A stretch of DNA of 57,837 nt, from positions 1 to 57,837 of the forward strand of contig JAISCI010000116.1 of NCBI GenBank assembly GCA_031265685.1, in the 5' to 3' direction. Both the position numbers and the translations under genes were made by a program. Below, piece by piece: positions 28,312-46,350 of the stretch. How positions within the stretch are numbered: position 1 is the stretch's first letter; each line of letters opens with the position of its first letter. Origin of the DNA: Clostridiales bacterium (GTDB lineage Bacteria; Bacillota; Clostridia; Lachnospirales; WRAX01). The notes beneath the pieces are model-generated. The model was not told the origin of the DNA, did no database searches, and saw nothing but the letters and a program-made list of their open reading frames with translations.

Positions 28312-30444
28312 CTAATCAATCCATTTATTGGCTCGCAGCTGCTCGATTATCGTATCAAGCTGCCGCATTTCCGGGTCTGATTCACCCGATTTGACGTTAG
28401 CGTTGTACAGCTCGGCGGCGCTGTCATAGTATTGCTTAGTCATAGAGTAGTCCCGGCTCTCGTTCTGGATTTTCGACTGCCTGTCGGCCTCAAGGTACGC
28501 TTGACGCATAGGTACGCGATAATCGTTCGGGAACAGATCCGCCATCTTATTAAGAAGGTCCGCGGCGCGGTCAAACTGGCCCGCGTTTTGGAGGAGTATA
28601 ACTAAGTTTTGCAATATGTGGAACTGTGCCGCTCCGCTCTCGGCCAGCCGCTCAAACAACGCGATCGCGCTTTCATAATCGCCGCATTTGACATACGCGT
28701 CCGCGAGCCGCTCCGTCATTTCGGGCGCTCGATTAAGCGGAATCCGGCTGATCGCGCCTGACAGCAGTTCGACGGAACGCTCGGGCTGTCCTTTCAGCCT
28801 GAAAACCTCATCGGACGTGTGGTACGCGCGGTAACGCAGATAGTCGTCGCTCGTCAGCGCGATAACCTCGCCGAAATAATCAACCGCGCTGTCGTATTCC
28901 CGCTTAGCGAAGTCAATCTCCCCGTTGATCAGATTCAGCGAGTCGGCGTCAAGATTCAGTACCCGCGCCTTTTCAAGCGCTCTCTCCGCTTCCGCTACCT
29001 CACCGATCCTCGCTAAGGCGACGGCGTAGTCGCGGTAATAAACTGGGTTGTCTTTAACGTACCGCACGGCAATCTCGAAATTGCCCATCGCCGTGAAGTA
29101 ATCAGGCTCGCCGGATTGATAGTAGTAACAGTCACCGAGAATATAGTAGATGTCGCCAAAGCTTCGCGCCGCTTCCGGCGCGGCCCTGAACTCCGCGATA
29201 TTGCCGAGGCTCGACTCTATATAGTCGCGGCAGACATCCAAATCGCCGTCGTCCCAAAGCCGCTCCGCCATAGCGCGGTACGGGTCGATCCTGTCCCAGA
29301 ACATCGCGAGGGCTTCATCATACGAGCCTTTCGGATCGGCTCCGTTCTCAATATCGTAAACGGCGGCGTAGTAGCGCTCCTCTTTCTCCTGAGCCATCAC
29401 GCCGCGTCCGAACAGCGCGGTTCCCGCGAACAGCGCGAACGCGAGCGGCAGGATAATCGCCGCCGCGATTTTCTTTGACTGTGATACTTTCCAGCGCGTG
29501 TCATGTTTGTGGATATTGCGGACGGCTTCGGCGAGAACCGCGGCCGACGCAAACCGCTCGTCCGGCGCAAAGCGCATCGACTGCTCGATCACATAAACTA
29601 TGCCCTCGCTGAAACGCCCGGCCTTTGAGATCGGCTTCAGCCCGGATGGTTCTTTGGGCGGACGGACGCCGCTCAAAAGGTGATACATTGTCGCGCCAAG
29701 ACTGTAAATATCCGAACGTTTCCAGTCGATGGCGGTATTATCAATACCGCGGACAGATTCCGCGGCGCGCGTATCCGGGTCAACAAGCTCCGTCGCCTCG
29801 GTATCCACGCTTTCGGTCGCGTCCGTCGCTTCAGCCTGAACGCTTGAGCCGCCATACCTGATTGGCGCGGAAGCGCGCGAAAACTCGCCGCGCTTGTATT
29901 TTTCATAAATCCCGTACTGCTCCGGGGAACAGTAACCCAAGCTGCGGCTGATCAGCTGAACGTCATTCCCCGCGACAAGCGCGGCGTTGAAGTCAATCAG
30001 GCATACATCGTCATTTGGGAGCAGCATTATGTTTCCGGGTTTGATGTCGCGGTGGCAGACGTTCTGTTTATGCAGCACCGTAAGCGCGGACGACAGCTGA
30101 CCGTACCATTTGACGACTTGGGCCTGTGTAAACCTTCCGCCGCGTTCCAGCAGCTTATCAAGGCTCTGCCCCTCGACAAACTCCATTACCGTGTAGGTTT
30201 GACCGTTTTCATTCAAGAAGTCATAGACCTGCGGCAAATGCTCGCTCTTTACGTTCTTCAGCGCGTCGCGTTCCTGTTCGCTCCCCGCGGCGTTGAACAG
30301 CGTCTTTATAACTACCGCCTTTTGCAGATTTGAGTCCCACGCCTTATATACCGCGCCGCCGCCGCCCTCGCCGAGCTTTTGCTCAACGCGGTAGCGCGGG
30401 GCGGACAGGATTGGAAATGAATCAGTTTGCATATTCTCCCCCAT
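28312..30444 (-). CDS. Hanks-type Ser/Thr protein kinase with one TM helix and an extracellular TPR domain
   Basis: The Gly loop is GEGGGGAVY, the VAIK-type Lys is in AVVIKTL, and the catalytic loop is HRDIKPGN. DFN replaces DFG, and SPEQ stands in the APE position. The TM helix is IAAAIILPLAFALFAGTALFG, followed by about 350 aa of TPR-like repeats. Confidence 0.9.
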   Translation of the reverse strand: MGENMQTDSFPILSAPRYRVEQKLGEGGGGAVYKAWDSNLQKAVVIKTLFNAAGSEQERDALKNVKSEHLPQVYDFLNENGQTYTVMEFVEGQSLDKLLERGGRFTQAQVVKWYGQLSSALTVLHKQNVCHRDIKPGNIMLLPNDDVCLIDFNAALVAGNDVQLISRSLGYCSPEQYGIYEKYKRGEFSRASAPIRYGGSSVQAEATDATESVDTEATELVDPDTRAAESVRGIDNTAIDWKRSDIYSLGATMYHLLSGVRPPKEPSGLKPISKAGRFSEGIVYVIEQSMRFAPDERFASAAVLAEAVRNIHKHDTRWKVSQSKKIAAAIILPLAFALFAGTALFGRGVMAQEKEERYYAAVYDIENGADPKGSYDEALAMFWDRIDPYRAMAERLWDDGDLDVCRDYIESSLGNIAEFRAAPEAARSFGDIYYILGDCYYYQSGEPDYFTAMGNFEIAVRYVKDNPVYYRDYAVALARIGEVAEAERALEKARVLNLDADSLNLINGEIDFAKREYDSAVDYFGEVIALTSDDYLRYRAYHTSDEVFRLKGQPERSVELLSGAISRIPLNRAPEMTERLADAYVKCGDYESAIALFERLAESGAAQFHILQNLVILLQNAGQFDRAADLLNKMADLFPNDYRVPMRQAYLEADRQSKIQNESRDYSMTKQYYDSAAELYNANVKSGESDPEMRQLDTIIEQLRANKWID

Positions 30445-32315
30445 TATTCCGCGAGATAAGCTATCGCTTCGTCATATGACACAGCTAAGGCCTTGGGCAT
30501 CAAAGCGCGCTCAAAACCGTGTTTCTGCCACAGCGACGGCGGTTCTCCGTTGAAATTATCGAACCACACGTTTTCCGCTTTGCTTAGGGCGCGGCGTATC
30601 GCGTCCTCGAAAGCCTCGCGCGTTAATTCCGTCCCGCTGATTGACTGACCGCCCACTGCCGTCCAGTCGTCCTCGCCGCCAAACCAGTACGCGTAATAAT
30701 CGTACCAAGGCGAGTCATCCGGGGTGTCGTATTTGTACTGTTCATAATACTTTGAGTAAGCGCCGAAACTCCCGTCGGCGTTGACGCCCCAAATATCCCA
30801 CCAAATCGTCCCGTCTCCGGACGTATGATAAATCCAAAACTCGTCGTCGCTCGTCGTAAACGCGAGCAGACACATCGTTCCGTAATCGGCGGATGGAGAT
30901 TCGATTCGGCGCGCCGCGTGGGATTTGACGTCATACGTCCAAACAGTCAGTCCGTGATTTGAGAGATACAGCAATTCCGGCGTATCGTCTCCGAACCAGT
31001 CCGCTACCGCGATTTTGCCCGAATCAGTTCCATCGTTTGACCAGCTGAATTTGAAGTTTTCGATTTCGGACTTATGGAAAGATAACAGCTCTCTGTACGT
31101 CTCTTGCCAGCTATTGGGAGAAGAGGCGAAGGGCGCTCTCACCAGGTCAAACCGGAAATACGGGATCACTAATTCGCTTGACCCGGCCGCGTAGTAGAAC
31201 GTATACTGCTCGAAATAGATGTGCACTCCGTCTTCGGCAAGCCAGAAAACCGCATTCTCGCCGCATTGCTCTTTTACGGACTCAACGAAATATTTGTTGT
31301 AACTGCCGCTGTACAGCTGCCCGTCATAACCCTGCGCGAAAATGTCATACCCGTCTCCGAGCGCGGCGTGATACGACAAGTACTCTTGATAGAGCGTATC
31401 GGCCAAATTATCGGCGCCGACCGACAAAACGTCGGATATACTCAATGATTCACCCGTCTCGCAATCGAAAGTATGGCCCAAATATTCAAACCCGCCGTGA
31501 GGGCCAAGACCGTCCCATTCCGAACTGCCGACGAAAGAGATGTATTGATTCTTGCGCCAGCTCTCTTCCCACGTCACGGCGGAACCGCCGACTCTGCCGT
31601 CGTTAGCTTCTTCATACGTGTACCCCTCGCGGCTGTAATACGACTCCAGCAGCCAATCCGAATCGCCGTTCGTGCTTCCCGCGGGTATCTCGCTTGCGAA
31701 CACCGCGTTCATTTTCCTGATTCGCGCGCCGTCTCCGGCAAATACGGGCTGACTGCTTTCGTCGCGCCAAATCAAAACCCCGTCGTCGGCGCGGAGTTCG
31801 TCATAATATGTTTGCTCAATGTCGTATTCGGGCACTATTAGGTCATAATAGCGTTCCGCGATTCTCTTGTCGTCCAGCTTATTAAGGCCGCGCCGTAAAA
31901 TTTCCGCTGACTTATTTTCGTCGCCAAGAGCGGCGTACACGTCCGCAAGCCCAAGATACGCGTCCGCGTTCGCGGGCGTTTCGTCGATTATCTCATTGTA
32001 GAGCTTCGTCAGATCTTCAAGGAAGGCCGTGTCGCCGGACAATTCATCAAAGCCTTTCCGCATAATCTCAACAGCGCGGTCAACTTCGCCGCGCGCGGCG
32101 TATACTTCTGCCAAGCCCGTGTAGCCTCGCGGATTGCGCGGCTCAATCTCAATCAGTCTGTCAAAACAGACGATCGCCTGCTCGTAGTCCATTTCGAGCA
32201 GGTATTTCTCGCCGAGGCCGAGAAGCTCGGCGGCGGTCATCGCGCTTATCGGCTTGGCGCAGGCGGCAAACAATAACGCCGTCAGCGCAAGCGCGAGCGG
32301 GATTGCGCGGCTCAT
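30444..32315 (-). CDS. Lipoprotein, shared N-terminal TPR module with a large C-terminal region that includes a DUF3298/RsiV-like segment (paralog 3)
   Basis: ATG at 32315 follows an AAGGGGGA RBS. The ORF-track start at 32546 would overlap the upstream gene. The lipobox is LFAAC, and the module is TAAELLGLGEKYLLEMDYEQAIVCFDRLIEIEPRNPRGYTGLAEVY. LGPHGGFEYLGHTFDCETGESLSISDVL resembles the DUF3298 signature, which is a tentative call. A TAATG stop/start overlap with the kinase gene lies at 30442-30446. Confidence 0.8.
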   Translation of the reverse strand: MSRAIPLALALTALLFAACAKPISAMTAAELLGLGEKYLLEMDYEQAIVCFDRLIEIEPRNPRGYTGLAEVYAARGEVDRAVEIMRKGFDELSGDTAFLEDLTKLYNEIIDETPANADAYLGLADVYAALGDENKSAEILRRGLNKLDDKRIAERYYDLIVPEYDIEQTYYDELRADDGVLIWRDESSQPVFAGDGARIRKMNAVFASEIPAGSTNGDSDWLLESYYSREGYTYEEANDGRVGGSAVTWEESWRKNQYISFVGSSEWDGLGPHGGFEYLGHTFDCETGESLSISDVLSVGADNLADTLYQEYLSYHAALGDGYDIFAQGYDGQLYSGSYNKYFVESVKEQCGENAVFWLAEDGVHIYFEQYTFYYAAGSSELVIPYFRFDLVRAPFASSPNSWQETYRELLSFHKSEIENFKFSWSNDGTDSGKIAVADWFGDDTPELLYLSNHGLTVWTYDVKSHAARRIESPSADYGTMCLLAFTTSDDEFWIYHTSGDGTIWWDIWGVNADGSFGAYSKYYEQYKYDTPDDSPWYDYYAYWFGGEDDWTAVGGQSISGTELTREAFEDAIRRALSKAENVWFDNFNGEPPSLWQKHGFERALMPKALAVSYDEAIAYLAE

Positions 32316-32379
32316 TCTTTCGTTTCCCCCTTTCAGTTTTCGAGATTGTTTATTTATGCTAATCCCAAAGGAAAGGCGT

Positions 32380-32844
32380 TTACAGTTTTTGTCCGCACGA
32401 ACCGCAGAATACGGCTCCATTTTCCAGTTCCTCGCCGCAATGAGCGCAGAGCCGGACTTCAGGCGCGGTTGGTTCTGTCCGAGCTTCCGGTGTTTCGACT
32501 TTAGAGCCGCATTTGCCGCAAAACACGGCGGTGAGCGGAAGGTCAAACCCGCAGTTGGGGCAGCGCTTCACCCCTTTAACAAGCTGAATCTCTGACTGCA
32601 GCTTCTCAATTTGCTCCGTTGCCGCGGTTATCGCAGCGCACAACTCATCAAACGGCGGTTCGGCGTCCTCGCGGCGCCGTTCATAGTACAACTTGCCGAT
32701 TTGCGAATATAAGCTTCCGATTTTTCGTTGTTCCTCTGAAATCCGCGAGTTGAGCCGAGCCGTTTCGGCGAATTCTTTCGTCGCTTTTACAGCGCCCTGT
32801 GTTGTGTCGGCGACTTTCTTTTTTATATCGTCGAACAAAGCCAT
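32380..32844 (-). CDS. Cytoplasmic coiled-coil protein with a double zinc ribbon
   Basis: CPNCGFDLPLTAVFCGKCG and CAHCGEELENGAVFCGSCG follow an N-terminal helical region. There is no TM helix. Confidence 0.75.
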   Translation of the reverse strand: MALFDDIKKKVADTTQGAVKATKEFAETARLNSRISEEQRKIGSLYSQIGKLYYERRREDAEPPFDELCAAITAATEQIEKLQSEIQLVKGVKRCPNCGFDLPLTAVFCGKCGSKVETPEARTEPTAPEVRLCAHCGEELENGAVFCGSCGQKL

Positions 32845-32884
32845 CTTAGCACCTCCGGTGTATTTTGTGAATTGTTCCTAAATC

Positions 32885-34042
32885 TCAAAAAAGCCCGACA
32901 GCTTCATATGGTCTGTGGATCTCCCATTCCGTATCGCCGGCGGGTCTTGTATTAGGCAGAACCGAATCGGGCGTTCCCCAAGTTCCGCTCACAAACGCGG
33001 CGTAGGGTATGTTTCCCTCGGCGTCCGCCGCGCCGAGCGGCTGTAAGATACCGTCGGCGTACCTTGACATCCACGTATCAACCTGTTGTTCGATTCCCTC
33101 ATACACGCTGTGCCTTTCCTCGAAGACGTCGCCTTCATAAAACCCGTCAATTACATTGCCGGACTGGACTTGCCAGTAATATGAGAAAATATCTCCGCTT
33201 TGCGGGTTGAACGCGTAGCGCTTGAACGCGCCTGTCGCTTTGCCGTCCTGGTATGTTAAGTCCTCCCAAGTGAACTGACGCGCATCGCCGTTATACTGAT
33301 GAGTCCACGCTATATGATAGACGAATCCATTCTCTCGTTTTCCATATTGCGCCATCAGATTTCTCTCTCCGGGTTCATTCCGGCTTAACTGATGTTCAAG
33401 CGTCAGCCGCGGTTCTGACTCCGAATCACTTCTGAAGTAGTAAAACATAGCGTGATAATAATAATCGTCGTAATCTTCGCGCTCACTGCTGCTGACATGC
33501 CCGGATCCGGCGTTGTAATATATGTCTGTTTTATGGTCGAGCTGACTGAACCAGGAGTGAGCGTTTTCATCTGTCATCAAGTTGTACGCAAGGTTCATAT
33601 CGCCGCTGACGAAGGCGTTATACAGATCTTCCATGTATGACGCGATGTTATCCGGCAACACAAAACCGCCGGACGCCGTGTCCGCATTGATGTTATCATT
33701 TGAATTCCGCGGAGGCTCGCTCAGTTTGTCCAATTCACTCAATTTATCGCGGATTCCCGCGTCGTCCGGCAGCCTCTCTAAGCCGCGCTTCAGCACCTCT
33801 TTTGCCTTATCAGGCTGCCCCAAGCCGGCATATGCGTCCGCCGCGCCCGTATAGCCGCGCGGATTCTTCGGCTCAATCTCAATCAGCCTGCCAAAATAGA
33901 CGACCGCCTGCTCGTAGTTCATTTCGAGCAGGTATTTCTCGCCGAGGTCGAGAAGCTCGGCGGCGGTCATCTCATTAAGCGGCTTTGAGCAGGCGGTAAG
34001 CATTGCCATCAGCGCGAGCGCGAGTGAAATTACGCGTCTCAT
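32885..34042 (-). CDS. Lipoprotein, shared N-terminal TPR module with unique C-terminal domain (paralog 4)
   Basis: The lipobox is LTAC. The module is TAAELLDLGEKYLLEMNYEQAVVYFGRLIEIEPKNPRGYTGAADAY. The C-terminus is rich in aromatic residues and unrelated to the other paralogs. Confidence 0.8.
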   Translation of the reverse strand: MRRVISLALALMAMLTACSKPLNEMTAAELLDLGEKYLLEMNYEQAVVYFGRLIEIEPKNPRGYTGAADAYAGLGQPDKAKEVLKRGLERLPDDAGIRDKLSELDKLSEPPRNSNDNINADTASGGFVLPDNIASYMEDLYNAFVSGDMNLAYNLMTDENAHSWFSQLDHKTDIYYNAGSGHVSSSEREDYDDYYYHAMFYYFRSDSESEPRLTLEHQLSRNEPGERNLMAQYGKRENGFVYHIAWTHQYNGDARQFTWEDLTYQDGKATGAFKRYAFNPQSGDIFSYYWQVQSGNVIDGFYEGDVFEERHSVYEGIEQQVDTWMSRYADGILQPLGAADAEGNIPYAAFVSGTWGTPDSVLPNTRPAGDTEWEIHRPYEAVGLF

Positions 34043-34051
34043 TGAGTCCTC

Positions 34052-34321
34052 CTATCCGGCGTGTCCGAGTGCAACCTTGCCGCGTCGGCTGTCAGCGTAT
34101 GACGTCCACTCGCTCTTGCCGGCATAAATGTTTTCGTCTTTCGGCGCGTCCGGCCACTTAACCTGAACTCGGGCTAAATGGCCGGAGACGTAACGCTCGC
34201 GGCGCGGCGGCTTGGAGCAATCGGCCAAATCGACCCCGCAAACGCGAACAGCGGAAACGGAGCCGGTAATCTTCTCATATACCTCACCAATACAGCCATT
34301 TGGGCAGTCGGTCCGCATCAT
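34052..34321 (-). CDS. Hypothetical small protein (about 89 aa)
   Basis: ATGATG at 34321 follows an AGGAAGG RBS and overlaps the 3' end of the upstream gene by about 37 nt. I recognise no family. Confidence 0.4.
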   Translation of the reverse strand: MMRTDCPNGCIGEVYEKITGSVSAVRVCGVDLADCSKPPRRERYVSGHLARVQVKWPDAPKDENIYAGKSEWTSYADSRRGKVALGHAG

Positions 34322-34607
34322 TATACGCGCCTTCCTGCGCTTTTTGATAAACATCCGCGCAGGCGGTAAGGCTCTCGCCGAACTTTTTCAGCGATTCGCG
34401 GAACCGCACGGTGGTGGAATTGTTATCGTCCACGCCTTCCCATTTGCGGCCAAACTCCTGCGCGTCAAACCCGAGCCAGTCGGCGGAGAGCATAGACTTA
34501 ACGTCGGAATCAGCCGACCGCATTTCCCTGTCCTGAGCGGAGCAGTATGCGGTCACCGCCGCCGCGACGTCGCGCAGCGCCTTGTGATTAACCTCAATAA
34601 CCGCCAT
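34284..34607 (-). CDS. WXG100-like small helical protein
   Basis: It is about 107 aa, with a central W-x-G (SADWLGFDAQEF) between two predicted helices. ATG at 34607 follows a GAGGTG RBS. Confidence 0.6.
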   Translation of the reverse strand: MAVIEVNHKALRDVAAAVTAYCSAQDREMRSADSDVKSMLSADWLGFDAQEFGRKWEGVDDNNSTTVRFRESLKKFGESLTACADVYQKAQEGAYNDADRLPKWLYW

Positions 34608-34617
34608 TTCGCGCACC

Positions 34618-34917
34618 TCACTTGAATTTGTCCGCCAGCTTCGTATTGACCGTCTCGGCGCTGGTATAGCCGGGATTCACCTGCTGTTCAAGCATATTGA
34701 CGTAGTTCTGGAGAATCGCCTGCCGCGCTTCGCTGTTCTTGAACAGCTGGTACATTGTCGTCTTCGCGGTCTCTCCCGCCGGGCTTTTCCAATTGCTGTC
34801 AAGCTGCCGCGCCTTGTCCTGTAGCGCGCGGAACTCGTTGTTGATATTGTTGTTTACCGCGCGCAGTCTGTTCGCCGAAGAAGCTATCCGATCGGTATTG
34901 ACGACCTGCTTCGCCAT
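34618..34917 (-). CDS. WXG100-family (EsxA-like) protein, second copy
   Basis: It is 99 aa with a helix-turn-helix layout and a central NWKSPAGE. The C-terminus KLADKFK parallels QLADAFK in the copy at 38325-38627. Confidence 0.7.
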   Translation of the reverse strand: MAKQVVNTDRIASSANRLRAVNNNINNEFRALQDKARQLDSNWKSPAGETAKTTMYQLFKNSEARQAILQNYVNMLEQQVNPGYTSAETVNTKLADKFK

Positions 34918-34928
34918 AGTGCCGCCCC

Positions 34929-35141
34929 CTAATTCTTGCCCATAATCCAGTCGGCGAGCCGATTGGAGTTCACGCGGCTCAGCCGCGCCAGAACGCCGTC
35001 GTATTTATCGGCAATCTTGTCAATGCAGTCGCCGCACAGCTGCTCTCCGATACCCGTAAAATCGCGGCGGACGCTCCACTCGATATCGCGAAGCTCTCCT
35101 ATTATGGAACGCATTTCGCTCCTGCACTCCGAGAGGTTCAT
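34929..35141 (-). CDS. 70-aa helical protein directly downstream of the lipase/CHAP protein (candidate chaperone or immunity factor)
   Basis: The ORF starts 12 nt after the effector stop codon. I recognise no family. Confidence 0.5.
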   Translation of the reverse strand: MNLSECRSEMRSIIGELRDIEWSVRRDFTGIGEQLCGDCIDKIADKYDGVLARLSRVNSNRLADWIMGKN

Positions 35142-35153
35142 ACAATTTTCCTC

Positions 35154-39257: not shown

Positions 39258-42200
39258 TTATCGCAAAAACTTAACGAGCGTCGCGGCTGCGCCCGCAACG
39301 ACAAACCCGAAGTCCGATTCAAGCTCCGCCGAGTAGTCCCGCGGTTTTTTGCTCACGGTCAAACGGTATTGCGCGTTGATCCCGCCGCCGACCCAAATTC
39401 CGTCATTACCGTTTATATGAGCCTTGTACCAATTCTCAACCGTAAGCGGCGTGAGCGAGTTCAGGCTCTCGGCTACCACAAAGTGGACATTGTACGCTTT
39501 ATCGCACTTCGCCATAGCGAGGTGAAGCCTGTTAAGCGGCGTGTCGTCGGCGGCGTCCTTTTTCACTTTTTCCGCGGGGTTATAGCGTTCAAGCATGGTT
39601 TTGAGCAGCGACATCGACTGAATGACCACAAACAGCGGCTCAAACCGCGGTATCCGGCCGCCTTCGGCCAGTCTGTCCTTGTACTCGTTGTTTCGGCTGA
39701 GGACTATGCCGAATATATCGCGAACAGCGTTCACGCAGCCGTTGGTATCGTTAAACACCTGGAGATTCTCGGAGCTTGACTGAATGAGCGTTTTGCCCGT
39801 AGGCGCGAGAACTATCGTCTTCACGCCGCAGCGCGAAGCGACCAAAGCGCCGAGAGCGTTTGTGAAATCCTGCCACTCCTGATTCACGGAGAGCACGAGA
39901 TTGACGGCGCTAGCCGTGAAGTTGCAGTAAGCTATCTCCAGCGTGGCTTTCTCAACGCCTATCGGCACACGGCTAAGGTCTCCATCCCGGACGTATGGCG
40001 ACAGGAACCGCTCCGTCACTTTCTCCGGCAGAACAGGAACGCTCATCGCCCCGGCTCCGGAGTATTTGGCCGACATCCTTTTGACGAACCCGCGTATGAA
40101 CCCATACGGCGGGTCTTCCGCCGTAATACTCGCCGTCTGAAATTCGAGCAAGCCGTCCTTGTCCCGCCGGAATATGCCCCTGCCTTTCATTTTGTCGGGA
40201 AGCATACCCTCCGTCTTGCCGACGACTGTCGCGTAATCGTCCGTATTGTTAAGCTGCAGACAGTACAACAGCTTAAAGTTCTGGAGCAGACTGAACTTAA
40301 CGTTGTTTACCCCCGTACAGGTAAGAATGAAGTAAATCCCGTACTTCGTCCCCTCGCGGGTCAGATAGCTGATTTCGGCGGACTTCTCCTCAAAGAGTTC
40401 CGTGAACGCCGCATAGTTGTTTATCACTACTACCAGACTCGGCTCCGGCACATCCGCTTGCTTGTTGTACTGAACCATACTGCCGCCAAACTGGGATAGC
40501 AGTTTCTTGCGGGTTTCGAGCTTGCCGATAATCAACTTGAACAGATTATTGACTTTTTCCGTTTCATAGGAAAGGATCACGTCGCCGACGTGCGGGGCGC
40601 CCGCGAACGCCGTCAGCGTTTCCGCGCCGAAGTCCATTATGTATATGTTTACTTCCCGCGGCGTATGCTCGTTCATCAGTGAATAGCACATCGACTCGAT
40701 GAACATCGCCTTGCCGTTGCCCGCCGAGCCGTATACTATGACGTTGCCGTCGCTCGTTACCGGAACGCGGAGTATGCCCTGTGACTGACGAGCGGGGTCG
40801 TCGAACTCGCCGGCTATCGGATTGAGGACAAATCGCTCCGCAGCCGACTTGCCGTATTTGTCGGCAAGCCCGTCAGCGTAAATCAGCGCGGGTATCGGGT
40901 CAAGCCACATCTTCCAGCGCTTGACATGTTCTTCTTCGCAAACCTTGCTGATGTAGCCCGTCACAACGTCAAGCTGCTTCGGCGGGTCTTTTACCATCGC
41001 GAACCTGTCAATGTTGGCTTCCGCGATTACCCGGCCGTTCGTGTTTATCACCGACACCGCGTCGTCGCGGTCTTTAATGACTTTGGCGGACGGGTAGTAG
41101 GGCGCGCCGGCCCAAGCGGACTGACCGATTTCAAACAGCTCGTTATAGCCGACTTGCAGATAGAACCGCCCGGTATCAACAAGCGCCGCCGCCTCCGGGC
41201 GGCCGAGCATTTCCGTACTGTCGCCGACGTCCTGCACTTTCAGACACACGCGGAATCGGCTGTTGCTGCGGATCTGATCGTCCACAACGCCGCCGGGCTT
41301 CTGCGTGGCGAGAATCAGGTGAACGCCCAAGCTGCGCCCGACGCGCGCCGTGCTGGTCAGCTCGGTCATAAAGTCGGGCTGTTCTTTCTTTAACTCCGCG
41401 AATTCATCGGAGATAATGAACAGGTGGGGGAGCGGCTCGCTTACCTTGCCCTCGCGGTAGAGCTTCTGATATTTGTAAATATCAATGTTGCTGACATTGT
41501 GCCTCCGCGAGGTGTCGCGGAATATGCGCTCGCGGCGATGCAGTTCGCTCCGCATGGAAGCGAGCGACCGCTTTATGCCGTTGCCGTCAAGGTTTGTGAT
41601 AATCCCCGCCGTATGCGGTATATTCTCAAACGATTTCGCCATACCGCCGCCTTTGTAATCAATCAGAATAAACGCGACTTCGTAGGGATGGAACGATACC
41701 GCCATCGAGAGAATGTAGGCAATAATAAACTCGCTCTTGCCGGATCCGGTCATACCCGCGACAAGCCCGTGCGGACCGTGCGCCCGCTCGTGCAGGTCAA
41801 GCTTGAACGGCTCTCCGTATTTATCAACCCCGACAGCCGCCGCGAGCGATTTGGCGGGATCGTTGGCGGACCAGTTATCGGCAAGGTTCAAATGCTCAAT
41901 CATGCCGATATCAAGCATTTCAAAGAAGGTATACTTCTTCGGCAGCGTGAAATTAGAGCCGCTGACGTCCACAAACGTGTTAGCGAGAACTCCCGTGGCG
42001 CGCTGAATGAACTTTGCCTGGTTCGCGCAAAATTCAGCGTCAATCCGCTGAGGCGCGTCAATATTGAACGGAATCGGCGGGTCGCTTACGTCGCCTATCA
42101 GAGTTAAATTTCCGTTTGAACCGCCGCGCAGCTCGACGACGGCGGCGCACTCCTTTGGAAGGTCGGCAAGCCGCTCGAACATAGACAGCACGGAGAATTT

Positions 42201-43946
42201 GATATTCTTCTTGTGTTCGAGCGCGCGGCGGACACATTCCGTTTTTGAGGCGAGTTCCTTATCCAAACAGATAATGACAAAGTACGGCGCTTCGTCGTCA
42301 AGCCTGCTTTCGCTCAATCCCTTGCGGTACTCTATGACGGAATCGAGGGCCTGCGACAGTTCTTTCGCTTCCTCCGAGTTCGTCGCGATGTAGCGAACCG
42401 TCCGCTCGTTGTTCATCGTATGAGGCAGCCACCGGGCAAAGCCGAAATCGGCTCCGCCGCTCTCGTCATATATAAGCGCGAGCTTAACCTCGTCGTAGCT
42501 GTGGAGGGCCGCGATCTGGATTATCAGGTTTTTCGCGTAAGAGAACAGGATGTCGCGGCCGGCGTACAGTCCGCTGACGAACCGCTCCGCGATGGGCAGA
42601 CAAACCGGAACATCGCGCAGCCAGCGTTTTGTCTCTCCAAACTGATACATCATCTCGGTCAAATTGTCCTTCTCGACCGTGAATCTGCGCTCCGAATACT
42701 GAATATTGGCTTTAAGCGGCAGATTGCCGCTGCCAAGCCGCAGAGACAGAAAATCGGTATGCTTCGGGGTGCGCTCCCAAATCCGCGGGTTCGGCGACAG
42801 AACGCGGCTCACGCAAGTCTCGGTATCGACGTCGTTATCGCGCAGGATTTGCTCCTGACGGGCGGTTTCGCTGGCGATAAGCGTCTGCATTTGCGCGAGA
42901 TATTCCTTATAAGTTTCCTGCCGCTTCGTTTCTTTGCGCTCGCGCAGTCTTTTTTGGAAAGTCTTTGTAATAAGAGGCCACATCAGCGTACCGAGTAGCA
43001 TACTCAGGCACATAACTATCGACGGGATAGCCGAGGTAATATCTCCGCGACCGATAGCGCTTGTAACCGCGAACACGCCGCTCGCCGCCGAAGCCATACC
43101 CATAGTCAGGGACGGACCGATCAGCATAATCATCGGCACCTCGTCATTGTCCTGATTATTAGGCGGCGCGTCTATTTTAAGCTCGAAAACACCGACGTCG
43201 CGCTTGAAACGCGGGGCGCGGTAATAATAGTCGGACTGAACGTCCTCGAAATCGTCGTCGGCATCGTAATCGTCGGGGGCGTTCTTGGTTTGCGGCGCGT
43301 GATACTCGCGGAGTCCGCCGCTCTGCACCTTAACGTTCCCGTCGGGATTGTTGAGAAATATTCCCCGGTTGGTTACTATAATCCGCAGTCCCAATATGTA
43401 AATAACGTCGCCTACGCTGAGCCGCCGCTGCCGCGTTACCGCTTTACCGTTGACATAAGTATTGTTTGTGCTGCCCAAGTCGCGCACAATTATCCCGTCG
43501 GGTGAAATGGTCAGTTCGGCGTGGTTTCTGGAAGCGAAATTATTTGAATAGCAAATGTTGTTCTCCGAGTTCAGCCCAATCGTCAGCACCGTCCGCGTGT
43601 CCGTAAGCTCGTAACCGCGGTACCTCTTGCGATCAGCGCTGAGCGGCTCGGTATACAGCACGAATTTATGCGCCCCGTCCGCGCTTTGTATTCTGTATAA
43701 CTCAAGCGGACTCAACGGCACGCTCTGCAAGATGTTGTTGGATTTGTCACGAATTTTGAAGCGGCGGTTCGACTTCATAATCCACTGGGACGCGCCTCCG
43801 CTCTCCGCGGAGCGCAGCGCCTCTACGGAAACCACGTCCGACAGCTTGCCGTCGGCGTTTCTGCCGCGCACCCAATAATGCCCCGCGTATTTTTCCGGCA
43901 AGGTCATACTGGTGTATTCCTGTTTTGAAAGAAGCGTCAGTTTCAT
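39258..43946 (-). CDS. essC: Type VII secretion FtsK/SpoIIIE-family ATPase EssC/YukB
   Basis: It is 1562 aa with two N-terminal FHA-like domains (second one: SRNHAELTI...GSTNNTYVNG) and two TM helices. Three P-loop ATPase modules follow (D1 GMTGSGKSE, D2 GSAGNGKAM, D3 with a degenerate Walker A). Confidence 0.95.
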   Translation of the reverse strand: MKLTLLSKQEYTSMTLPEKYAGHYWVRGRNADGKLSDVVSVEALRSAESGGASQWIMKSNRRFKIRDKSNNILQSVPLSPLELYRIQSADGAHKFVLYTEPLSADRKRYRGYELTDTRTVLTIGLNSENNICYSNNFASRNHAELTISPDGIIVRDLGSTNNTYVNGKAVTRQRRLSVGDVIYILGLRIIVTNRGIFLNNPDGNVKVQSGGLREYHAPQTKNAPDDYDADDDFEDVQSDYYYRAPRFKRDVGVFELKIDAPPNNQDNDEVPMIMLIGPSLTMGMASAASGVFAVTSAIGRGDITSAIPSIVMCLSMLLGTLMWPLITKTFQKRLRERKETKRQETYKEYLAQMQTLIASETARQEQILRDNDVDTETCVSRVLSPNPRIWERTPKHTDFLSLRLGSGNLPLKANIQYSERRFTVEKDNLTEMMYQFGETKRWLRDVPVCLPIAERFVSGLYAGRDILFSYAKNLIIQIAALHSYDEVKLALIYDESGGADFGFARWLPHTMNNERTVRYIATNSEEAKELSQALDSVIEYRKGLSESRLDDEAPYFVIICLDKELASKTECVRRALEHKKNIKFSVLSMFERLADLPKECAAVVELRGGSNGNLTLIGDVSDPPIPFNIDAPQRIDAEFCANQAKFIQRATGVLANTFVDVSGSNFTLPKKYTFFEMLDIGMIEHLNLADNWSANDPAKSLAAAVGVDKYGEPFKLDLHERAHGPHGLVAGMTGSGKSEFIIAYILSMAVSFHPYEVAFILIDYKGGGMAKSFENIPHTAGIITNLDGNGIKRSLASMRSELHRRERIFRDTSRRHNVSNIDIYKYQKLYREGKVSEPLPHLFIISDEFAELKKEQPDFMTELTSTARVGRSLGVHLILATQKPGGVVDDQIRSNSRFRVCLKVQDVGDSTEMLGRPEAAALVDTGRFYLQVGYNELFEIGQSAWAGAPYYPSAKVIKDRDDAVSVINTNGRVIAEANIDRFAMVKDPPKQLDVVTGYISKVCEEEHVKRWKMWLDPIPALIYADGLADKYGKSAAERFVLNPIAGEFDDPARQSQGILRVPVTSDGNVIVYGSAGNGKAMFIESMCYSLMNEHTPREVNIYIMDFGAETLTAFAGAPHVGDVILSYETEKVNNLFKLIIGKLETRKKLLSQFGGSMVQYNKQADVPEPSLVVVINNYAAFTELFEEKSAEISYLTREGTKYGIYFILTCTGVNNVKFSLLQNFKLLYCLQLNNTDDYATVVGKTEGMLPDKMKGRGIFRRDKDGLLEFQTASITAEDPPYGFIRGFVKRMSAKYSGAGAMSVPVLPEKVTERFLSPYVRDGDLSRVPIGVEKATLEIAYCNFTASAVNLVLSVNQEWQDFTNALGALVASRCGVKTIVLAPTGKTLIQSSSENLQVFNDTNGCVNAVRDIFGIVLSRNNEYKDRLAEGGRIPRFEPLFVVIQSMSLLKTMLERYNPAEKVKKDAADDTPLNRLHLAMAKCDKAYNVHFVVAESLNSLTPLTVENWYKAHINGNDGIWVGGGINAQYRLTVSKKPRDYSAELESDFGFVVAGAAATLVKFLR

Positions 43947-44770
43947 ACTTTTCTCCGTTTTCCGAATTTATTCGCGATCCCGTGAATGAACGCTATCCGC
44001 GGGATTGCCGCGTCAGCCACAACGATTGTCACATTGTCCCTTCCGCCGTTATCTAACGCCGATTTAAGCAAGTAATCGGCGGCGGCGGCGGTTTTAACGG
44101 AACTTTTTAACGCGTCTTCGATTTCGGCGCGGCTTACCATATCGGTCAATCCGTCGGAACAAATCAGGATCCGGCATTTTCCGCGTATAGGCGGATAACT
44201 CTCCGCGGCGCGCGTTTCGCCGATTCCTATGCACCGCGTAAGTTTGTGCCTGTCTTTTTCGAGCCGCGCCCGCTCCGCCGTTATTAAGCCGCTCCGAACT
44301 TTCTCTGCCGCCAAAGTATGGTCGTTTGTCACTTGCGCGAGAGCGCCTTCTGTTAAACTATAAATTCGCGTATCTCCTATGCTGAAACAGTATACGCCGC
44401 TTTCCGCGACTATTGCCAGCGCGAGCGTTGTGCCGACCCGGCAGGCGGGGTTTCCCGAGCGTATCGCCTTATTTGCCGCGCTGACGTAGGCCTGCGCGCC
44501 GCGCTCAAATTCCGCGGGCGAACACGATTTAATCCGTTCGCTGTATTGCGCCAGCAGGGAAACCGCTGTCAGCGAAGCGATCTCGCCGTCGTTCTCGCCG
44601 CCCATCCCGTCGCAGACCGCTAAAATTACAGGCGCGCGCGAACTGCCGTCAATGGCGAACGGACGTTCGCGTGTTTCGGAGGTAAGCGTCACACCGTCCG
44701 CAAACAGGTTATCCTCGTTTTTATCCCGAACCCTACCAACGTGAGAACGGGCCGAATACGCCACATCCAT
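43943..44770 (-). CDS. PP2C-family Ser/Thr phosphatase (Stp/PrpC-like)
   Basis: The motifs RVRDKNEDN, AVCDGMGGENDGEIAS, ICSDGLTDMV and GGRDNVTIVV are present. An ATGA overlap with essC lies at 43943-43946. Confidence 0.92.
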   Translation of the reverse strand: MDVAYSARSHVGRVRDKNEDNLFADGVTLTSETRERPFAIDGSSRAPVILAVCDGMGGENDGEIASLTAVSLLAQYSERIKSCSPAEFERGAQAYVSAANKAIRSGNPACRVGTTLALAIVAESGVYCFSIGDTRIYSLTEGALAQVTNDHTLAAEKVRSGLITAERARLEKDRHKLTRCIGIGETRAAESYPPIRGKCRILICSDGLTDMVSRAEIEDALKSSVKTAAAADYLLKSALDNGGRDNVTIVVADAAIPRIAFIHGIANKFGKRRKV

Positions 44771-44781: not shown

Positions 44782-46350
44782 TTAAAATATGGACTCGGTT
44801 TTACTGCCGCCGGGCGACTTTTCCGGTTCGCGCGGATGGGCGGGCGCCCCAAGCGACTGAATATAATCTATATGTAACGACTCCCGTCCGAATTTCAGCG
44901 TACAGCCGGATTGCAGAGGAGAACTTCCCGTGATATTTACGCCGTTCAAAAACGTCTTGTTTGTCCGGCTCAAATGAACGACGATCAGCCCCGCGCCCTG
45001 AGCGGCGATTTTGCACTGCTCGCGCGAAACGCTCTTATCGTCAAGCCGAATGGCGCAATATTCGGCGCGGCCGATTACCAATTCGCCGTTTATGGGAAGG
45101 ATCCAGTTTTTGCCTGGATTATCGGGGTTACTAAGCTTAATTGTAAACTGCGCTCCCGAAAAATCCGCCTCGCCGACAAACTCGGTCTTTTCGTAGTAAT
45201 TACCTCCGCCTGACACTATTTCATTCGGCGCGCTGTATTCGGAAGTCCGCTTTTTCTTTTTCCCGCGGGTAACGGCGACGGCTATAATCACCGCGATAAG
45301 TATAATGAGCAAAACACCCGCGCCTATAAAAACAACCAGAGTATAGTCCCCGAACACGGAAGTTATAGACTCGGTCGATTCAGGCTCGTATTCTACCGGC
45401 GATACCGTCGGTTTCGGCGCCGCGGTTATTTCAGGCGCGGCCGGCGGCTCGGCTGTCTCGGCTGAGGGAGCGTCAAAAACAGAAACTTTCATATCGAACT
45501 GAACGGAATTAACTCCGTCCGAAATGTCCACCTGCCGAGTCGAACCGTCTAACAACGCGCTCGGGAGTACGGCTCTGAGCCAAAACACCCCGCCGGAAGC
45601 GAGACTCGAAGAAAGTTCCGGAATGTCGGATTCAGGATATAGATTCACATATCTGCCGCCGCTCATCCGGGTCAGCGCGGATAACTCTTTTTCAGGCTCC
45701 GTTTGTTTCGATCCGCTGACCGCGACGACGTCAACGGGATAGGCGTCGGCCTGAAGCTTCAGATAAAGCTCCTCTTTGGTCACGCCGCTCGCGGTATCGT
45801 CTATACCGTCCGTGATAACAATCGTGCGGTAGTAGCAGGGTTTGTCCTCAATCGGCTGAACCTTCGGAATCGTGTTGTAAATCGCGTCATAAATCCTGCT
45901 CTGCTGACCGTTAAACTCGATTTTCGCCGCGGCGCCGGCAAGGTCGTACCGGTCGGATGTGAAATCCTGTAATACGGTAAGCCGCTCGCCGAAAGTCACA
46001 ATCTTGAATTGCTCGTTCTTCGCGATACGCTCAATCATGGCGTCAATATAAGCCTTAATATCCGCCCGGGCTTCCGGCGGCATGGAAGTGGAAATATCAA
46101 GCAGAACCGTGGCGCGAACCGTCACGTCTTTGTCCGACAGAAAACCGCCGTCCGTAATCTCCGCCGTTTGATTGGACACCTTGACGATAAGGTTATCAGC
46201 GTCCATTTCACCCGCTACAAACACATCCATGTTACGTTCCCACACATATGCCTGCGACAAGGAGGCGCCGTCCGCGCGGCACACGGCCAGCGGCGCCATG
46301 AGGGCTGATACTAATACAAAGACAAACGTAAACAGCTTCTTGGTCAGCAT
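44782..46350 (-). CDS. Bitopic protein with an extracellular vWA domain, one TM helix and a cytoplasmic FHA domain
   Basis: It has an N-terminal signal/anchor. The vWA domain has the MIDAS motif DISTS (VLLDISTSMPPEARADIKAYID...VITDGIDD). The TM helix is LVVFIGAGVLLIILIAVIIAVAV. The C-terminal FHA domain reads LVIGRAEYCAIRLDDKSVSREQCKI...SRTNKTFLNG. Confidence 0.88.
   Translation of the reverse strand: MLTKKLFTFVFVLVSALMAPLAVCRADGASLSQAYVWERNMDVFVAGEMDADNLIVKVSNQTAEITDGGFLSDKDVTVRATVLLDISTSMPPEARADIKAYIDAMIERIAKNEQFKIVTFGERLTVLQDFTSDRYDLAGAAAKIEFNGQQSRIYDAIYNTIPKVQPIEDKPCYYRTIVITDGIDDTASGVTKEELYLKLQADAYPVDVVAVSGSKQTEPEKELSALTRMSGGRYVNLYPESDIPELSSSLASGGVFWLRAVLPSALLDGSTRQVDISDGVNSVQFDMKVSVFDAPSAETAEPPAAPEITAAPKPTVSPVEYEPESTESITSVFGDYTLVVFIGAGVLLIILIAVIIAVAVTRGKKKKRTSEYSAPNEIVSGGGNYYEKTEFVGEADFSGAQFTIKLSNPDNPGKNWILPINGELVIGRAEYCAIRLDDKSVSREQCKIAAQGAGLIVVHLSRTNKTFLNGVNITGSSPLQSGCTLKFGRESLHIDYIQSLGAPAHPREPEKSPGGSKTESIF

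Follow-up and report, generated by a model that had tools for sequence, protein, structure and literature searches.

A kinase, PP2C phosphatase, and FHA protein module within a T7SSe/T7SSj-like secretion locus of a Clostridiales bacterium

The window, a stretch of 57,837 nucleotides from a Clostridiales bacterium, carries a minus-strand island of ~28 kb (about 19.8-48.2 kb), which is an FHA-bearing, kinase-associated T7SS of the T7SSe/T7SSj-like kind. A single minus-strand array holds genes for a vWA-TM-FHA protein (termed adaptor here), a PP2C phosphatase, an EssC whose N-terminus bears FHA domains in tandem, and a Hanks kinase (STK-TM-TPR) that is intact. The features of these four genes are as follows.

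44782..46350, minus strand: adaptor, vWA(out)-TM-FHA(in), 522 aa (Pfam, AF2, Foldseek, conservation)
Adaptor residues 2-21, signal-like helix; residues 30-288, beta plus vWA ectodomain
46084-46098: adaptor MIDAS D85xS87xS89 (D85-I-S87-T-S89)
45265-45342: single adaptor TM, residues 337-362, followed by KKKKR
45175-45189: K-T389-E-F-V in the disordered adaptor linker
44851-45150: adaptor FHA domain, residues 401-500, pocket R428, S442, N464
44785-44802: adaptor C-terminal tail K-T518-E-S-I-F (KTESIF)
43943..44770, minus strand: PP2C/PPM Ser/Thr phosphatase, 275 aa, no TM
39258..43946, minus strand: EssC/TsxC ATPase, 1562 aa (TIGR03928 EssC, 974 bits, cutoff 778)
43302-43946: EssC tandem FHA, residues 1-215, canonical FHA2 at about residues 110-200
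43572-43574: EssC Leu125, codon CTG (Arg in relatives)
28312..30444, minus strand: Hanks kinase, STK(in)-TM-TPR(out), 710 aa (Pfam Pkinase, E=6.5e-34)
29515-30393: kinase domain, K47, D133, N138, D151, E175
29716-29910: 65-aa kinase insertion between APE and helix F, with T210-E-S-V and T218-E-L-V

An 11-nt gap separates the adaptor gene from the PP2C gene downstream of it, and the adaptor protein matched Pfam VWA (residues 82-231) and FHA (residues 425-488). The N-terminal signal-like helix and the one TM followed by KKKKR place the vWA domain outside and the FHA domain inside. Among 99 homologous sequences, MIDAS residues S87 and S89 were invariant and D85 was kept in at least 90%; in the FHA domain, G427, R428, N464, and T466 were invariant and S442 was kept in at least 90%. 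The adaptor thus retains all three residues (Arg, Ser, and Asn) that bind phosphothreonine. In an AF2 model (pLDDT 84), the T389 linker and the tail were disordered and undocked. In Foldseek searches, the ectodomain matched ArnB (8s05/5a8j) as well as integrin I domains, and the FHA domain matched FhaA/GarA/OdhI; by NCBIfam, the TM plus FHA part resembled FhaB/FipA, below cutoff.

The phosphatase matched Pfam PP2C_2 (E=1.6e-12) as well as PP2C and, below cutoff, an NCBIfam Stp1/IreP-like model (E=1.2e-50). The motifs RDKNED, DGMGG, GDTR, SDGLTD, and GRDN are present, metal-binding motifs included, and the protein clusters with PP2C from 38 other EssC loci. Its gene ends in ...AAAGTATGA, and essC begins at that ATG; this 4-nt ATGA overlap was found only in the window's genome, relatives having gaps of 8-24 nt instead. 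The kinase gene starts 8.8 kb past the 3' end of essC and encodes G25xGGGG, K47 (VVIK), H131RDIKPGN138, D151-F-N, and S173PE, with one TM at about residues 326-344 and TPR repeats thereafter. DFN in place of DFG is common to 16 of 51 related kinases, and 49-50 of the 51 retain K47, D133, N138, and D151. Pfam recognized FtsK_SpoIIIE and only one FHA domain (residues 122-184) in EssC, and Foldseek matched an AF2 model of residues 1-262 (pLDDT 83) to the tandem-FHA N-termini of the EssC/YukB structures 5fwh, 9qks_H, and 1wv3. The initial annotation had described the ATGA overlap, an upstream gene for a MIDAS-containing vWA domain, one TM, and a cytoplasmic FHA domain, an intact Hanks kinase in the same array, and an EssC starting with FHA domains, all of which were recovered here.

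The canonical FHA2 phosphothreonine pocket (Arg/Ser/His/Asn) is kept across the clade of the window's EssC (G124 119/119, R125 113/119, S139 117/119, H142 119/119, N161 119/119); it is absent from classical T7SSb EssC (PMC11217815). At position 125, where 113 of the 119 relatives have the phosphate-binding Arg, the window's EssC has Leu, a replacement that appears to be new and is common to one 77%-identical relative. Direct phosphothreonine reading by the window's EssC is therefore doubtful, and judged from its sequence this protein may not read phosphothreonine at all. The phosphothreonine-binding FHA residues are thus preserved in the adaptor but not fully in FHA2 of this EssC, where the Arg is replaced.

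The remaining genes of the island are the following.

38992..39243, minus strand: TsxB, YukD/EsaB-like small ubiquitin-fold protein, 83 aa
38325..38938, minus strand: non-identical WXG100 pair, TsxA/TsxA2-like (98 aa, 38642-38938; 100 aa, 38325-38627)
34284..38261, minus strand: effector cassette (Pfam)
37557-38261, minus strand: cassette lipoprotein, candidate immunity protein
35154-37553, minus strand: cassette effector, 799 aa, Mbeg1-like lipase, helical targeting region, Gly/Ser linker, and CHAP
34618-34917 and 34284-34616, minus strand: two WXG-like partners in the cassette
25652..34042, minus strand: five paralogues, shared N-terminal TPR unit, variable C-termini (Pfam, lipobox/TM inspection)
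32885-34042, 30444-32315, 27374-28129, and 26551-27357, minus strand: four TPR lipoproteins
25652-26503, minus strand: TPR-LRR paralogue, TM-anchored N-terminus, no lipobox Cys
32380-32844, minus strand: cytoplasmic double Zn-ribbon protein
19858..25641, minus strand: distal accessory genes (Pfam)
21748-25641, minus strand: vWA-1297, 1297-aa membrane-anchored vWA protein
20249-21751, minus strand: Ig-500, 500-aa Ig-like protein, signal peptide and C-terminal TM
19858-20265, minus strand: 2-TM Zn-ribbon protein
46413-46736 and 47259-47582: further Zn-ribbon proteins

TsxB of the window had no direct Pfam match; its cluster directly follows essC in 66 of 81 loci, and other members match PF08817 YukD (E down to 1.6e-6). 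The WXG100 pair matched Pfam WXG100 (E=3.5e-9 and 2.6e-10) and the NCBIfam subfamily model ESAT6_2 with 58 bits, below the cutoff of 100. Clusters of the lipoprotein and the Mbeg1-like protein recur downstream of essC in relatives. A small recombinase flanks the island, which is also present in distant Clostridia.

Gene neighborhoods were compared for 81 EssC loci from different species. The proposed co-occurrence with essC was borne out: within 10 kb, PP2C was found in 39/81 and a kinase in 45/81 loci, almost always on the same strand, whereas the minimal 'Bacilli' EssC clade had neither (0/15 each; Fisher p=1.5e-5 and 7e-7). The linkage of PP2C and kinase to essC is not due to chance (P ~5e-32 against a generous background rate). 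Thirteen distinct loci of the window's clade have the vWA-TM-FHA gene just upstream of essC; a PP2C gene separates the two in 10 of these and is missing from that position in the other 3. The kinase is present in all six adaptor-essC loci with enough flanking sequence, and in L097/L098 its gene immediately precedes that of the adaptor. The best 120 EssC matches and the best 120 adaptor matches were linked by 24 contigs of exactly equal length. A contiguous seven-gene block (adaptor, kinase, PP2C, TPR-LRR, vWA-1297, Ig-500, Zn-ribbon) stands beside a second, FHA-less EssC lineage (type B loci), with vWA-1297, Ig-500, and Zn-ribbon coming after kinase/PP2C/TPR-LRR in L086, L090, and L107; in some type B loci PP2C was not seen within the available sequence. 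Thus, a kinase/phosphatase/FHA module within a Clostridial T7SS locus is real and widely conserved. Ter-type loci hold a vWA, PP2C, and kinase triad independent of T7SS, and a TerY-P-like surface or stress system might share the mobile island without any relation to secretion, as the flanking recombinase and the distribution among distant Clostridia would allow. Such hitch-hiking is highly improbable: the module adjoins essC in every long-enough contig across two EssC lineages and is interleaved on one strand with core T7SS genes. Moreover, the adaptor and TseJ are mutually exclusive among the loci compared, suggesting functional replacement within the secretion machine. Comparative genomics strongly supports a functional tie between EssC and the kinase, PP2C, and FHA proteins.

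The locus had been labeled T7SSb. Like T7SSb (EssC/YukB - EssB/YukC - EsaB/YukD; PMC12637312, PMC4925161), it has an EssC that passes the NCBIfam equivalog and shares the tandem-FHA fold (5fwh, 9qks, 1wv3), a YukD-like protein, WXG100 substrates, and an effector cassette of the LXG-like or 'reverse' lipase kind. However, Pfam/profile searches found no EssB, EsaA, or EssA in the window, the pseudokinase of T7SSb has a predicted active kinase as its counterpart, and the FHA2 pocket of the clade is lacking in T7SSb. The T7SSb assignment was therefore rejected, T7SSe/T7SSj being the closest class. Garrett, Higginson & Palmer (2024, Microlife; PMC11217815) described the types T7SSc-j, in which kinases occur along with PPM phosphatases and FHA proteins. 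Shared with T7SSe/T7SSj are YukD-like TsxB, the non-identical WXG100 pair, the PPM phosphatase, a separate FHA protein, a membrane Ser/Thr kinase (the TPR ectodomain matching TsjD), and the lack of EssB, EsaA, and EssA. The window's EssC shares 43-47% identity with that of Neobacillus/Bacillus loci, the gene content of which matches published T7SSe, and its clade was sister to these in an NJ tree. In contrast, PP2C lies upstream of essC rather than next to the kinase, sequence homologues of TseI, TseH, and TseK were not found at the locus, where vWA-1297, Ig-500, TPR-LRR, and Zn-ribbon proteins occur instead, and a membrane vWA-TM-FHA protein appears to stand in place of the cytoplasmic DUF6382-FHA partner (TseJ/TsjJ), which seems to be new.

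The kinase, the adaptor, and the vWA/Ig/TPR proteins might mainly form a membrane and envelope scaffold replacing EssB, EsaA, and EssA, with constitutive, phospho-independent FHA-kinase contacts as in T7SSb and with catalysis secondary or vestigial. The absence of these three proteins from the window fits this idea, as does the EssB-like kinase topology (kinase fold, one TM, ectodomain), noted for TscD (PMC11217815). T7SSb FHA2 contacts the EssB pseudokinase in cryo-EM and binds it without phosphorylation (PMC12637312), Ig-500 matches TsxI, a proposed envelope-spanning protein, in topology, and the locus looks intact although its EssC lacks the FHA Arg. A purely structural role is nevertheless unlikely, because the catalytic residues of kinase and PP2C and the phosphothreonine pockets are clearly conserved, and a phospho-independent scaffold gives a dedicated phosphatase no role.

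Candidate phosphothreonine sites recur in the module. In 97 of 99 adaptor sequences, Thr is kept at T389, inside an otherwise variable, disordered linker. The type of adaptor tail co-varies with EssC, T-E-S-[ILM]-F accompanying the FHA-bearing form and [TS]-x-F-[IV]-N-[IV] the FHA-less one. Kinases of adaptor-type loci carry an insertion of 62-162 aa. Eleven non-redundant inserts contained 39 T-[ED]-x-hydrophobic motifs (x = hydrophobic, Ser, or Tyr) versus 1.2 expected, a number reached in 0/2000 shuffles, the related sequences being non-independent so that shuffle statistics on this short motif overstate significance. T7SSe kinases, unlike that of the window, are without the insertion; there, the adjoining single-TM protein has T-x-hydrophobic-hydrophobic arrays (142 motifs versus 19.9 +/- 4.2 expected). 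The T-E-hydrophobic-hydrophobic motifs conserved in adaptor linker, adaptor tail, and kinase insertion thus appear to be new candidate ligands of FHA domains. GarA and OdhI, in which the FHA domain binds the protein's own phosphorylated N-terminal Thr, offer a model for T389.

Phospho-control of T7SS is already known as an idea: contrary to the novelty first claimed, threonine phosphorylation was proposed for T7SSe/f/j, with the T6SS precedent cited (PMC11217815), and a related Actinomycetales pathway has been described (PMC13622651). In Pseudomonas aeruginosa, H1-T6SS has the same domain set (Hanks kinase, PP2C, FHA, extracytoplasmic vWA) wired to a secretion ATPase/membrane complex, but the vWA domain of its PpkA/PppA/Fha1 system is on the kinase PpkA (PMC3224232), whereas the window has vWA fused to FHA and a TPR kinase ectodomain; the machines are unrelated, an analogy rather than homology of systems. 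Sulfolobus ArnB, the closest structural match of the adaptor ectodomain (vWA plus beta-sandwich), binds the FHA protein ArnA in a phosphorylation-dependent manner (PMC6509490) but is cytoplasmic, whereas the adaptor vWA is extracytoplasmic. The TM-linker-FHA layout resembles FipA of the mycobacterial FhaB/FipA pair. Unlike the adaptor, none of ArnA/ArnB, GarA/OdhI, and FhaB/FipA is T7SS-linked.

The Esx-linked Esr pathway of Actinomycetales (bioRxiv preprint, Sept 2026; PMC13622651) also combines vWA protein(s), Ser/Thr kinase, phosphatase, and FHA protein within T7SS operons, and its FHA protein EsrG1 undergoes kinase-dependent Thr phosphorylation in a disordered region beside FHA, where the adaptor has a candidate Thr. 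It belongs to another phylum and T7SS type, and its MoxR ATPase, beta-propeller sensor, and transglutaminase were not found in the window. This pathway (Esr1 of Schaalia) works at the transcriptional level. Likewise, the module could serve as a sensor of the envelope or of threats, its phosphorylated FHA protein altering gene expression or another response without gating EssC directly; the recurring Zn-ribbon proteins and the variable TPR/LRR lipoproteins, which resemble diversifying sensors, are consistent with this. We consider such an output quite improbable. The adaptor, unlike the Esr FHA protein, is membrane-anchored and without a DNA-binding domain, its tail type co-varies with EssC type, 113/119 relatives have a phosphothreonine-competent EssC FHA, and the module genes lie within the T7SS operon, with one start/stop overlap.

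A kinase/PP2C/FHA phospho-switch acting on the EssC machine is, on balance, the probable explanation of the whole. Its parts would be the membrane Hanks kinase (catalysis in, TPR out), the cytoplasmic PP2C, the type-I membrane adaptor (vWA/MIDAS outside, FHA inside), and the EssC tandem FHA. An envelope or cell-contact cue would act through the extracytoplasmic vWA, TPR, LRR, and Ig proteins to activate the kinase. We infer that threonines of T-E-hydrophobic-hydrophobic motifs, in its own insertion loop and at T389 and T518 of the adaptor, would then be phosphorylated, and that they would be bound by the adaptor FHA and, in most relatives, by EssC FHA2; type B loci retain adaptor and motif arrays with an FHA-less EssC, so EssC-FHA cannot be the universal reader. 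Binding would assemble or activate the EssC machine, as a phospho-dependent counterpart of the T7SSb EssB-pseudokinase/EssC-FHA2 contact, and PP2C would reset the system. The output of the module would thus be the gating of secretion.

The threonine kinase, PP2C and FHA genes lie together with essC in a single long gene array on the minus strand that spans the region.

Gene array of the window, in the direction of transcription
44782-46350, minus: vWA-TM-FHA protein, 522 aa (the adaptor)
43943-44770, minus: PP2C (PPM phosphatase), 275 aa
39258-43946, minus: EssC, 1562 aa
38992-39243, minus: YukD-like protein, 83 aa
38642-38938 and 38325-38627, minus: two WXG100 proteins, above the Pfam WXG100 gathering score
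37557-38261, minus: lipoprotein
35154-37553, minus: Mbeg1-like/CHAP protein, 799 aa
34618-34917 and 34284-34616, minus: two WXG-like proteins
32885-34042, minus: TPR lipoprotein
32380-32844, minus: Zn-ribbon protein
30444-32315, minus: TPR lipoprotein
28312-30444, minus: Hanks kinase with TM helix and TPR ectodomain, 710 aa
27374-28129 and 26551-27357, minus: two further TPR lipoproteins
25652-26503, minus: TPR-LRR protein
21748-25641, minus: vWA protein, 1297 aa
20249-21751, minus: Ig-like protein, 500 aa
19858-20265, minus: TM/Zn-ribbon protein

The island is chromosomal, since its flanks carry housekeeping genes (trigger factor, ClpX, IspD, HtpG, and GlnS). The PP2C stop overlaps the essC start as ATGA; this overlap, the adaptor MIDAS motif DISTS, the kinase VIK lysine, and the HRDIKPGN motif, all reported in the initial annotation, are present.

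EssC scored 974 bits against TIGR03928 (cutoff 778) and matched Pfam FtsK_SpoIIIE with E=2.6e-49. With its FtsK/SpoIIIE-type multi-P-loop ATPase and adjoining WXG100 genes, the locus is a T7SS. The initial annotation had labeled it T7SSb. This label does not fit because EssB/YukC, EsaA/YueB, and EssA/YueC had no Pfam match among the 26 ORFs scanned (18.8-48.9 kb), which include every long minus-strand ORF of the array. Moreover, the FHA of classical T7SSb EssC lacks the phosphothreonine consensus, whereas the clade of the window's EssC keeps G-R...S-x-x-H...S-x-N. The locus shares more with T7SSe as described by Garrett, Higginson & Palmer: its components correspond to TseB, to the pair TseA and TseA2, and to TseC, which has an FHA with the phosphothreonine motif, but the window's EssC carries the substitution R125L. 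The 83-aa TsxB had no direct Pfam match and was assigned via cluster members matching YukD. T7SSe also has a membrane kinase, TseD, and a PPM phosphatase, TseF, and the window's kinase and PP2C share clusters with those of Neobacillus/Bacillus T7SSe-type loci. In contrast, the cytoplasmic DUF6382-FHA protein TseJ, found at all T7SSe loci, has no counterpart, as DUF6382 occurs neither in the window nor at any vWA-TM-FHA locus; the two architectures were mutually exclusive across 97 loci. The 500-aa Ig-like protein has the topology of TseI (large Ig-like, signal peptide, C-terminal TM), yet its sequence is not similar to the Ig-727/1552 cluster. For comparison with the single-TM proteins TseH/TseK of T7SSe, the window has several small TM/Zn-ribbon proteins, none homologous to the TM-190 cluster. 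T7SSj is matched in the C-terminal TPR domain of its kinase but not in the DUF6382-FHA protein TsjJ, and TsjC clusters near T7SSf/b (PMC11217815). All three domain types of the TerY-P triad (vWA, PP2C, and Ser/Thr kinase) are present, but in place of a soluble TerY-type protein the vWA here lies outside the membrane, on one chain with TM-FHA. An Esr- or Kaur-type (MoxR-vWA-beta-propeller) system was rejected, as no MoxR AAA+ ATPase, beta-propeller sensor, or transglutaminase was found among the window ORFs scanned.

In the AlphaFold2 model of the adaptor (pLDDT 84), a signal-like helix is followed by an ectodomain of beta-sandwich and vWA, a Pro-rich linker, and a single TM helix with KKKKR after it. 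Next come a disordered stretch, an FHA of canonical type, and a tail that is again disordered. The nearest structures are ArnB and integrin I domains for the ectodomain and FhaA, GarA, and OdhI for the FHA. Docking of the Thr389 linker or of the tail on the adaptor's own FHA was not seen in this model, which is uninformative on the point since both are disordered (pLDDT below 50). Ser87, Ser89, Gly427, Arg428, Asn464, and Thr466 are invariant in 99 homologues; Asp85, Thr160, Asp181, and Ser442 are at least 90% conserved. For EssC, Pfam recognized one FHA, and AlphaFold2 of residues 1-262 (pLDDT 83) gave two beta-sandwiches, best matched by the tandem-FHA N termini of EssC/YukB (5fwh, 9qks_H, and 1wv3). 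Its FHA2 pocket is kept in the clade (Gly124, His142, and Asn161 in 119/119, Ser139 in 117/119, and Arg125 in 113/119). The phosphothreonine-binding residues expected of these FHA domains were thus borne out for the adaptor (Arg428, Ser442, and Asn464) and for the EssC clade but only in part for the window's own EssC: codon 125 (nt 43572-43574) reads CTG, Leu, one transversion from CGG, with Ser, His, and Asn kept. R125L is probably a real lineage variant rather than a sequencing error, because a 77%-identical relative (P0008) shares the Leu. The window's EssC may accordingly not be a phosphothreonine reader, and the adaptor FHA would then carry this function. The catalytic residues of kinase and PP2C are intact by sequence; the kinase DFG reads DFN, a lineage trait found in 16 of 51 related kinases. 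Beside these conserved catalytic and binding residues, we regard a mainly structural role of the proteins as unlikely, although the lost arginine of the window's EssC speaks for it.

Linkage to essC was evaluated in a scan with one genome per species, which yielded 80 EssC loci at 36-78% identity whose ORFs were called and searched with the window proteins. The proposed co-occurrence was corroborated: PP2C was found within 10 kb of essC in 39/81 loci and a kinase in 45/81, almost always on the same strand, and neither occurred in a minimal clade of 15 loci from uncultured Bacilli (Fisher p=1.5e-5 and 7e-7, respectively). Mere co-location of these genes with essC is very improbable. The pair is also not the housekeeping PrpC/PrkC, as it lacks PASTA domains, belongs in 39-45 loci to a T7SS operon whose strand it shares, and clusters with T7SSe TseF/TseD. 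A DUF6382-Zn-ribbon-FHA protein was found in 36 loci by clustering and Pfam. In Neobacillus/Bacillus the order is EssC, YukD-like, WXG, WXG, DUF6382-FHA, PP2C, kinase, single-TM protein, and large Ig-like protein, which is the arrangement of T7SSe (PMC11217815).

The clade of the window's EssC comprises Oscillospiraceae and other Clostridia (at least 119 90%-identity clusters, 61-83% identity) and was sister to the Bacillus/Neobacillus T7SSe group in an NJ tree. Grouping of two loci (L092 and L114) with the FHA-less EssC loci in this tree was treated as a tree or ORF-calling artefact, their gene content being that of loci with FHA-bearing EssC. At 13 distinct loci of the clade the gene immediately preceding essC, or the PP2C-essC pair, encodes the vWA-TM-FHA protein; PP2C lies between the two at 10 of these. 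At least 24 contigs of exactly equal length appeared among both the best 120 EssC and the best 120 adaptor matches, confirming co-location on a wider scale. One relative is a complete 5.6-Mb genome labeled Desulfitobacterium hafniense, from a different Clostridial order (L081; GCA_000944695.1, LK996017.1), with an EssC 77% identical to the window's and its genes arranged as in the window as far as the kinase. This locus suggests that the island may have spread horizontally, and it provides a cultured carrier usable for experiments.

The adaptor family extends to at least 287 clusters, and its distant members (45-56% identity) belong to a second locus type. There, YukD, an FHA-less EssC, and WXG genes precede a contiguous block of vWA-TM-FHA, kinase-TPR, (PP2C), TPR-LRR, ~1297-aa vWA, ~498-aa Ig-like, and Zn-ribbon genes. 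This type was seen at L084-L088, L090, L104, and L107; it may be related to the published T7SSc, with vWA TscE, kinase TscD, and PPM TscF (PMC11217815). Because all genes of the block recur in the window, on either side of the EssC core, the accessory genes form one conserved module that occurs with two EssC lineages. The pairing of this extracytoplasmic module of seven genes, kinase included, with different EssC lineages suggests that it is a portable sensor/regulator cassette, comparable by analogy to the threonine phosphorylation pathway of the T6SS.

FHA domains commonly prefer ligands in which the Thr has a hydrophobic residue at +3. In the disordered linker of the adaptor, K-T389-E-hydrophobic-hydrophobic is conserved, with Thr in 97/99 sequences. 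The C terminus of the adaptor differs with the EssC type of the locus: K-T-E-S-[ILM]-F where EssC bears FHA, [TS]-x-F-[IV]-N-[IV] where it has none. The kinases of all adaptor-containing loci carry an insertion of 62-162 residues between APE and helix F, where T7SSe kinases lack it and have 7 residues. Across eleven non-redundant inserts, the T-[ED]-x-hydrophobic motif (x is hydrophobic, Ser, or Tyr) was counted 39 times in total versus 1.2 expected from shuffles, a ratio that is indicative only, since the sequences are related; the window's insert has T210-E-S-V and T218-E-L-V. In T7SSe-type loci, the small single-TM protein encoded downstream of the kinase and adjoining it (TseK/TseH-like; L005-L057, e.g. 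L017 23480-24052) has instead a disordered cytoplasmic region with arrays of E-T-x-L-L / T-E-V-L motifs; its T-x-hydrophobic-hydrophobic arrays (142 observed, 19.9 +/- 4.2 expected) are subject to the same relatedness. This protein is a candidate for docking FHA domains at multiple sites. No description of the candidate phospho-site motifs was found in PMC11217815.

Further features of the array concern its envelope and effector genes. Five paralogous proteins at 25652-34042 have a near-identical N-terminal TPR unit (...AAELLDLGEKYLLE.NYEQA...IEPKNPRGYTGLAEAY...); four have a lipobox Cys and one is TM-anchored, and their C-terminal domains are unrelated, one being LRR. The pattern is that of a putative diversifying sensor or adaptor family, with three to four copies in relatives such as L081. 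Mechanical ORF calling gave 700 aa from a TTG start at 30444-32546. The true start is probably the internal Met at 32315 with a lipoprotein signal (MSRAIPLALALTALLFAAC), as the longer ORF would overlap the Zn-ribbon gene at 32380-32844. Coordinate 30444 is common to the 3' end of this gene and the kinase start, so that the two would overlap by a few nucleotides. The effector cassette at 34284-38261 has a 'reverse' layout, in which the lipoprotein, a candidate immunity protein, comes first and the two small WXG-like proteins last. Its 799-aa effector begins with an Mbeg1-like lipase (GHSQGG) and ends in a CHAP domain, with a helical targeting-like region in the centre and then a linker rich in Gly/Ser; relatives of ~510 aa are without the CHAP extension.

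Just upstream of the operon is a gene for a tyrosine recombinase of 190 aa; the proteins of the window and of L083, a related locus, are 70% identical.

Recombinase and site regions
48141-48313 and 48345-48917: window
7286-7462 and 6663-7259: L083
5629-5790 and 5025-5594: L096
1300-2070: L095

Two ~31-nt lox-like palindromic sites (core GTAACA...TGTTAC) with asymmetric spacers in inverted orientation adjoin the recombinase, 111-115 nt apart, and the arrangement is kept in three relatives. At the end of the intervening segment the window and L083 have TATAAT and L095 has TATAGT, each oriented toward the operon. The segment is possibly an invertible, phase-variable promoter. No flipped form was evident by eye in four assemblies, in sequence flanking the recombinase-proximal arm only.

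The best-supported reading of the locus, which we consider rather probable, is phospho-control of the EssC machine in four steps. The extracytoplasmic vWA, TPR, LRR, and Ig proteins would form an envelope complex controlling the kinase, which would phosphorylate the TE-hydrophobic threonines. The FHA of the adaptor, and of EssC in most relatives, would bind these, leading to assembly or activation, and PP2C would reset the state. A transcriptional or other output is improbable. The proposed phospho-control would mirror PpkA/PppA/Fha1 of the T6SS, where the extracellular vWA is PpkA's own (PMC3224232), and would be a phospho-dependent version of the T7SSb contact between EssC-FHA2 and the EssB pseudokinase seen by cryo-EM (PMC12637312). 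Only tentatively, a wider combination can be drawn. The T-E-hydrophobic-hydrophobic arrays, borne by the kinase insertion in the window and, in T7SSe, by the single-TM protein beside the kinase, might be autophosphorylated, multivalent phosphothreonine docking platforms recruiting the EssC and adaptor FHA domains, with adaptor Thr389/Thr518 as intramolecular or intermolecular switches. An ancestral phospho-dependent form of the EssB-pseudokinase/EssC-FHA2 pair would thereby be preserved, an extracellular vWA/MIDAS ligand (target cell or envelope) would trigger firing, and an invertible promoter under recombinase control would bring in phase variation as a further layer.

T7SSc-j, as defined by Garrett, Higginson & Palmer (Microlife 2024), often include kinases, PPM phosphatases, and FHA proteins, T7SSj kinases having a TPR ectodomain as in the window; TseC, TsfC, and TsjC keep the phosphothreonine motif absent from T7SSb EssC, and phosphorylation control was suggested with T6SS as precedent (PMC11217815). 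A September 2026 preprint on Schaalia describes an Esx-linked vWA/kinase/phosphatase/FHA pathway that phosphorylates an FHA protein on Thr (PMC13622651). The regulation of EssC by kinase, PP2C, and FHA inferred in the initial annotation is thus reasonable and supported in part, and the linkage is observed, but the idea is no longer new because these two reports precede it. The supplements of PMC11217815 gave no match for Desulfitobacterium, Oscillospiraceae, or Neobacillus, and the clade may still be in their accession lists. Three features appear to be new: the vWA-TM-FHA adaptor, the arrays of threonine motifs, and the seven-gene module common to both EssC lineages.

With the window locus and its relatives, the published hypothesis of phosphorylation control becomes specific: there are now candidate acceptors (adaptor Thr389/Thr518 and kinase Thr210/Thr218) and candidate readers (adaptor Arg428 and, in relatives, EssC Arg125), and the window's EssC offers a natural R125L variant. 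Kinase/phosphatase/FHA variants of the T7SS are widespread in gut and environmental Bacillota, and how secretion is switched on is a general question for the T7SS.
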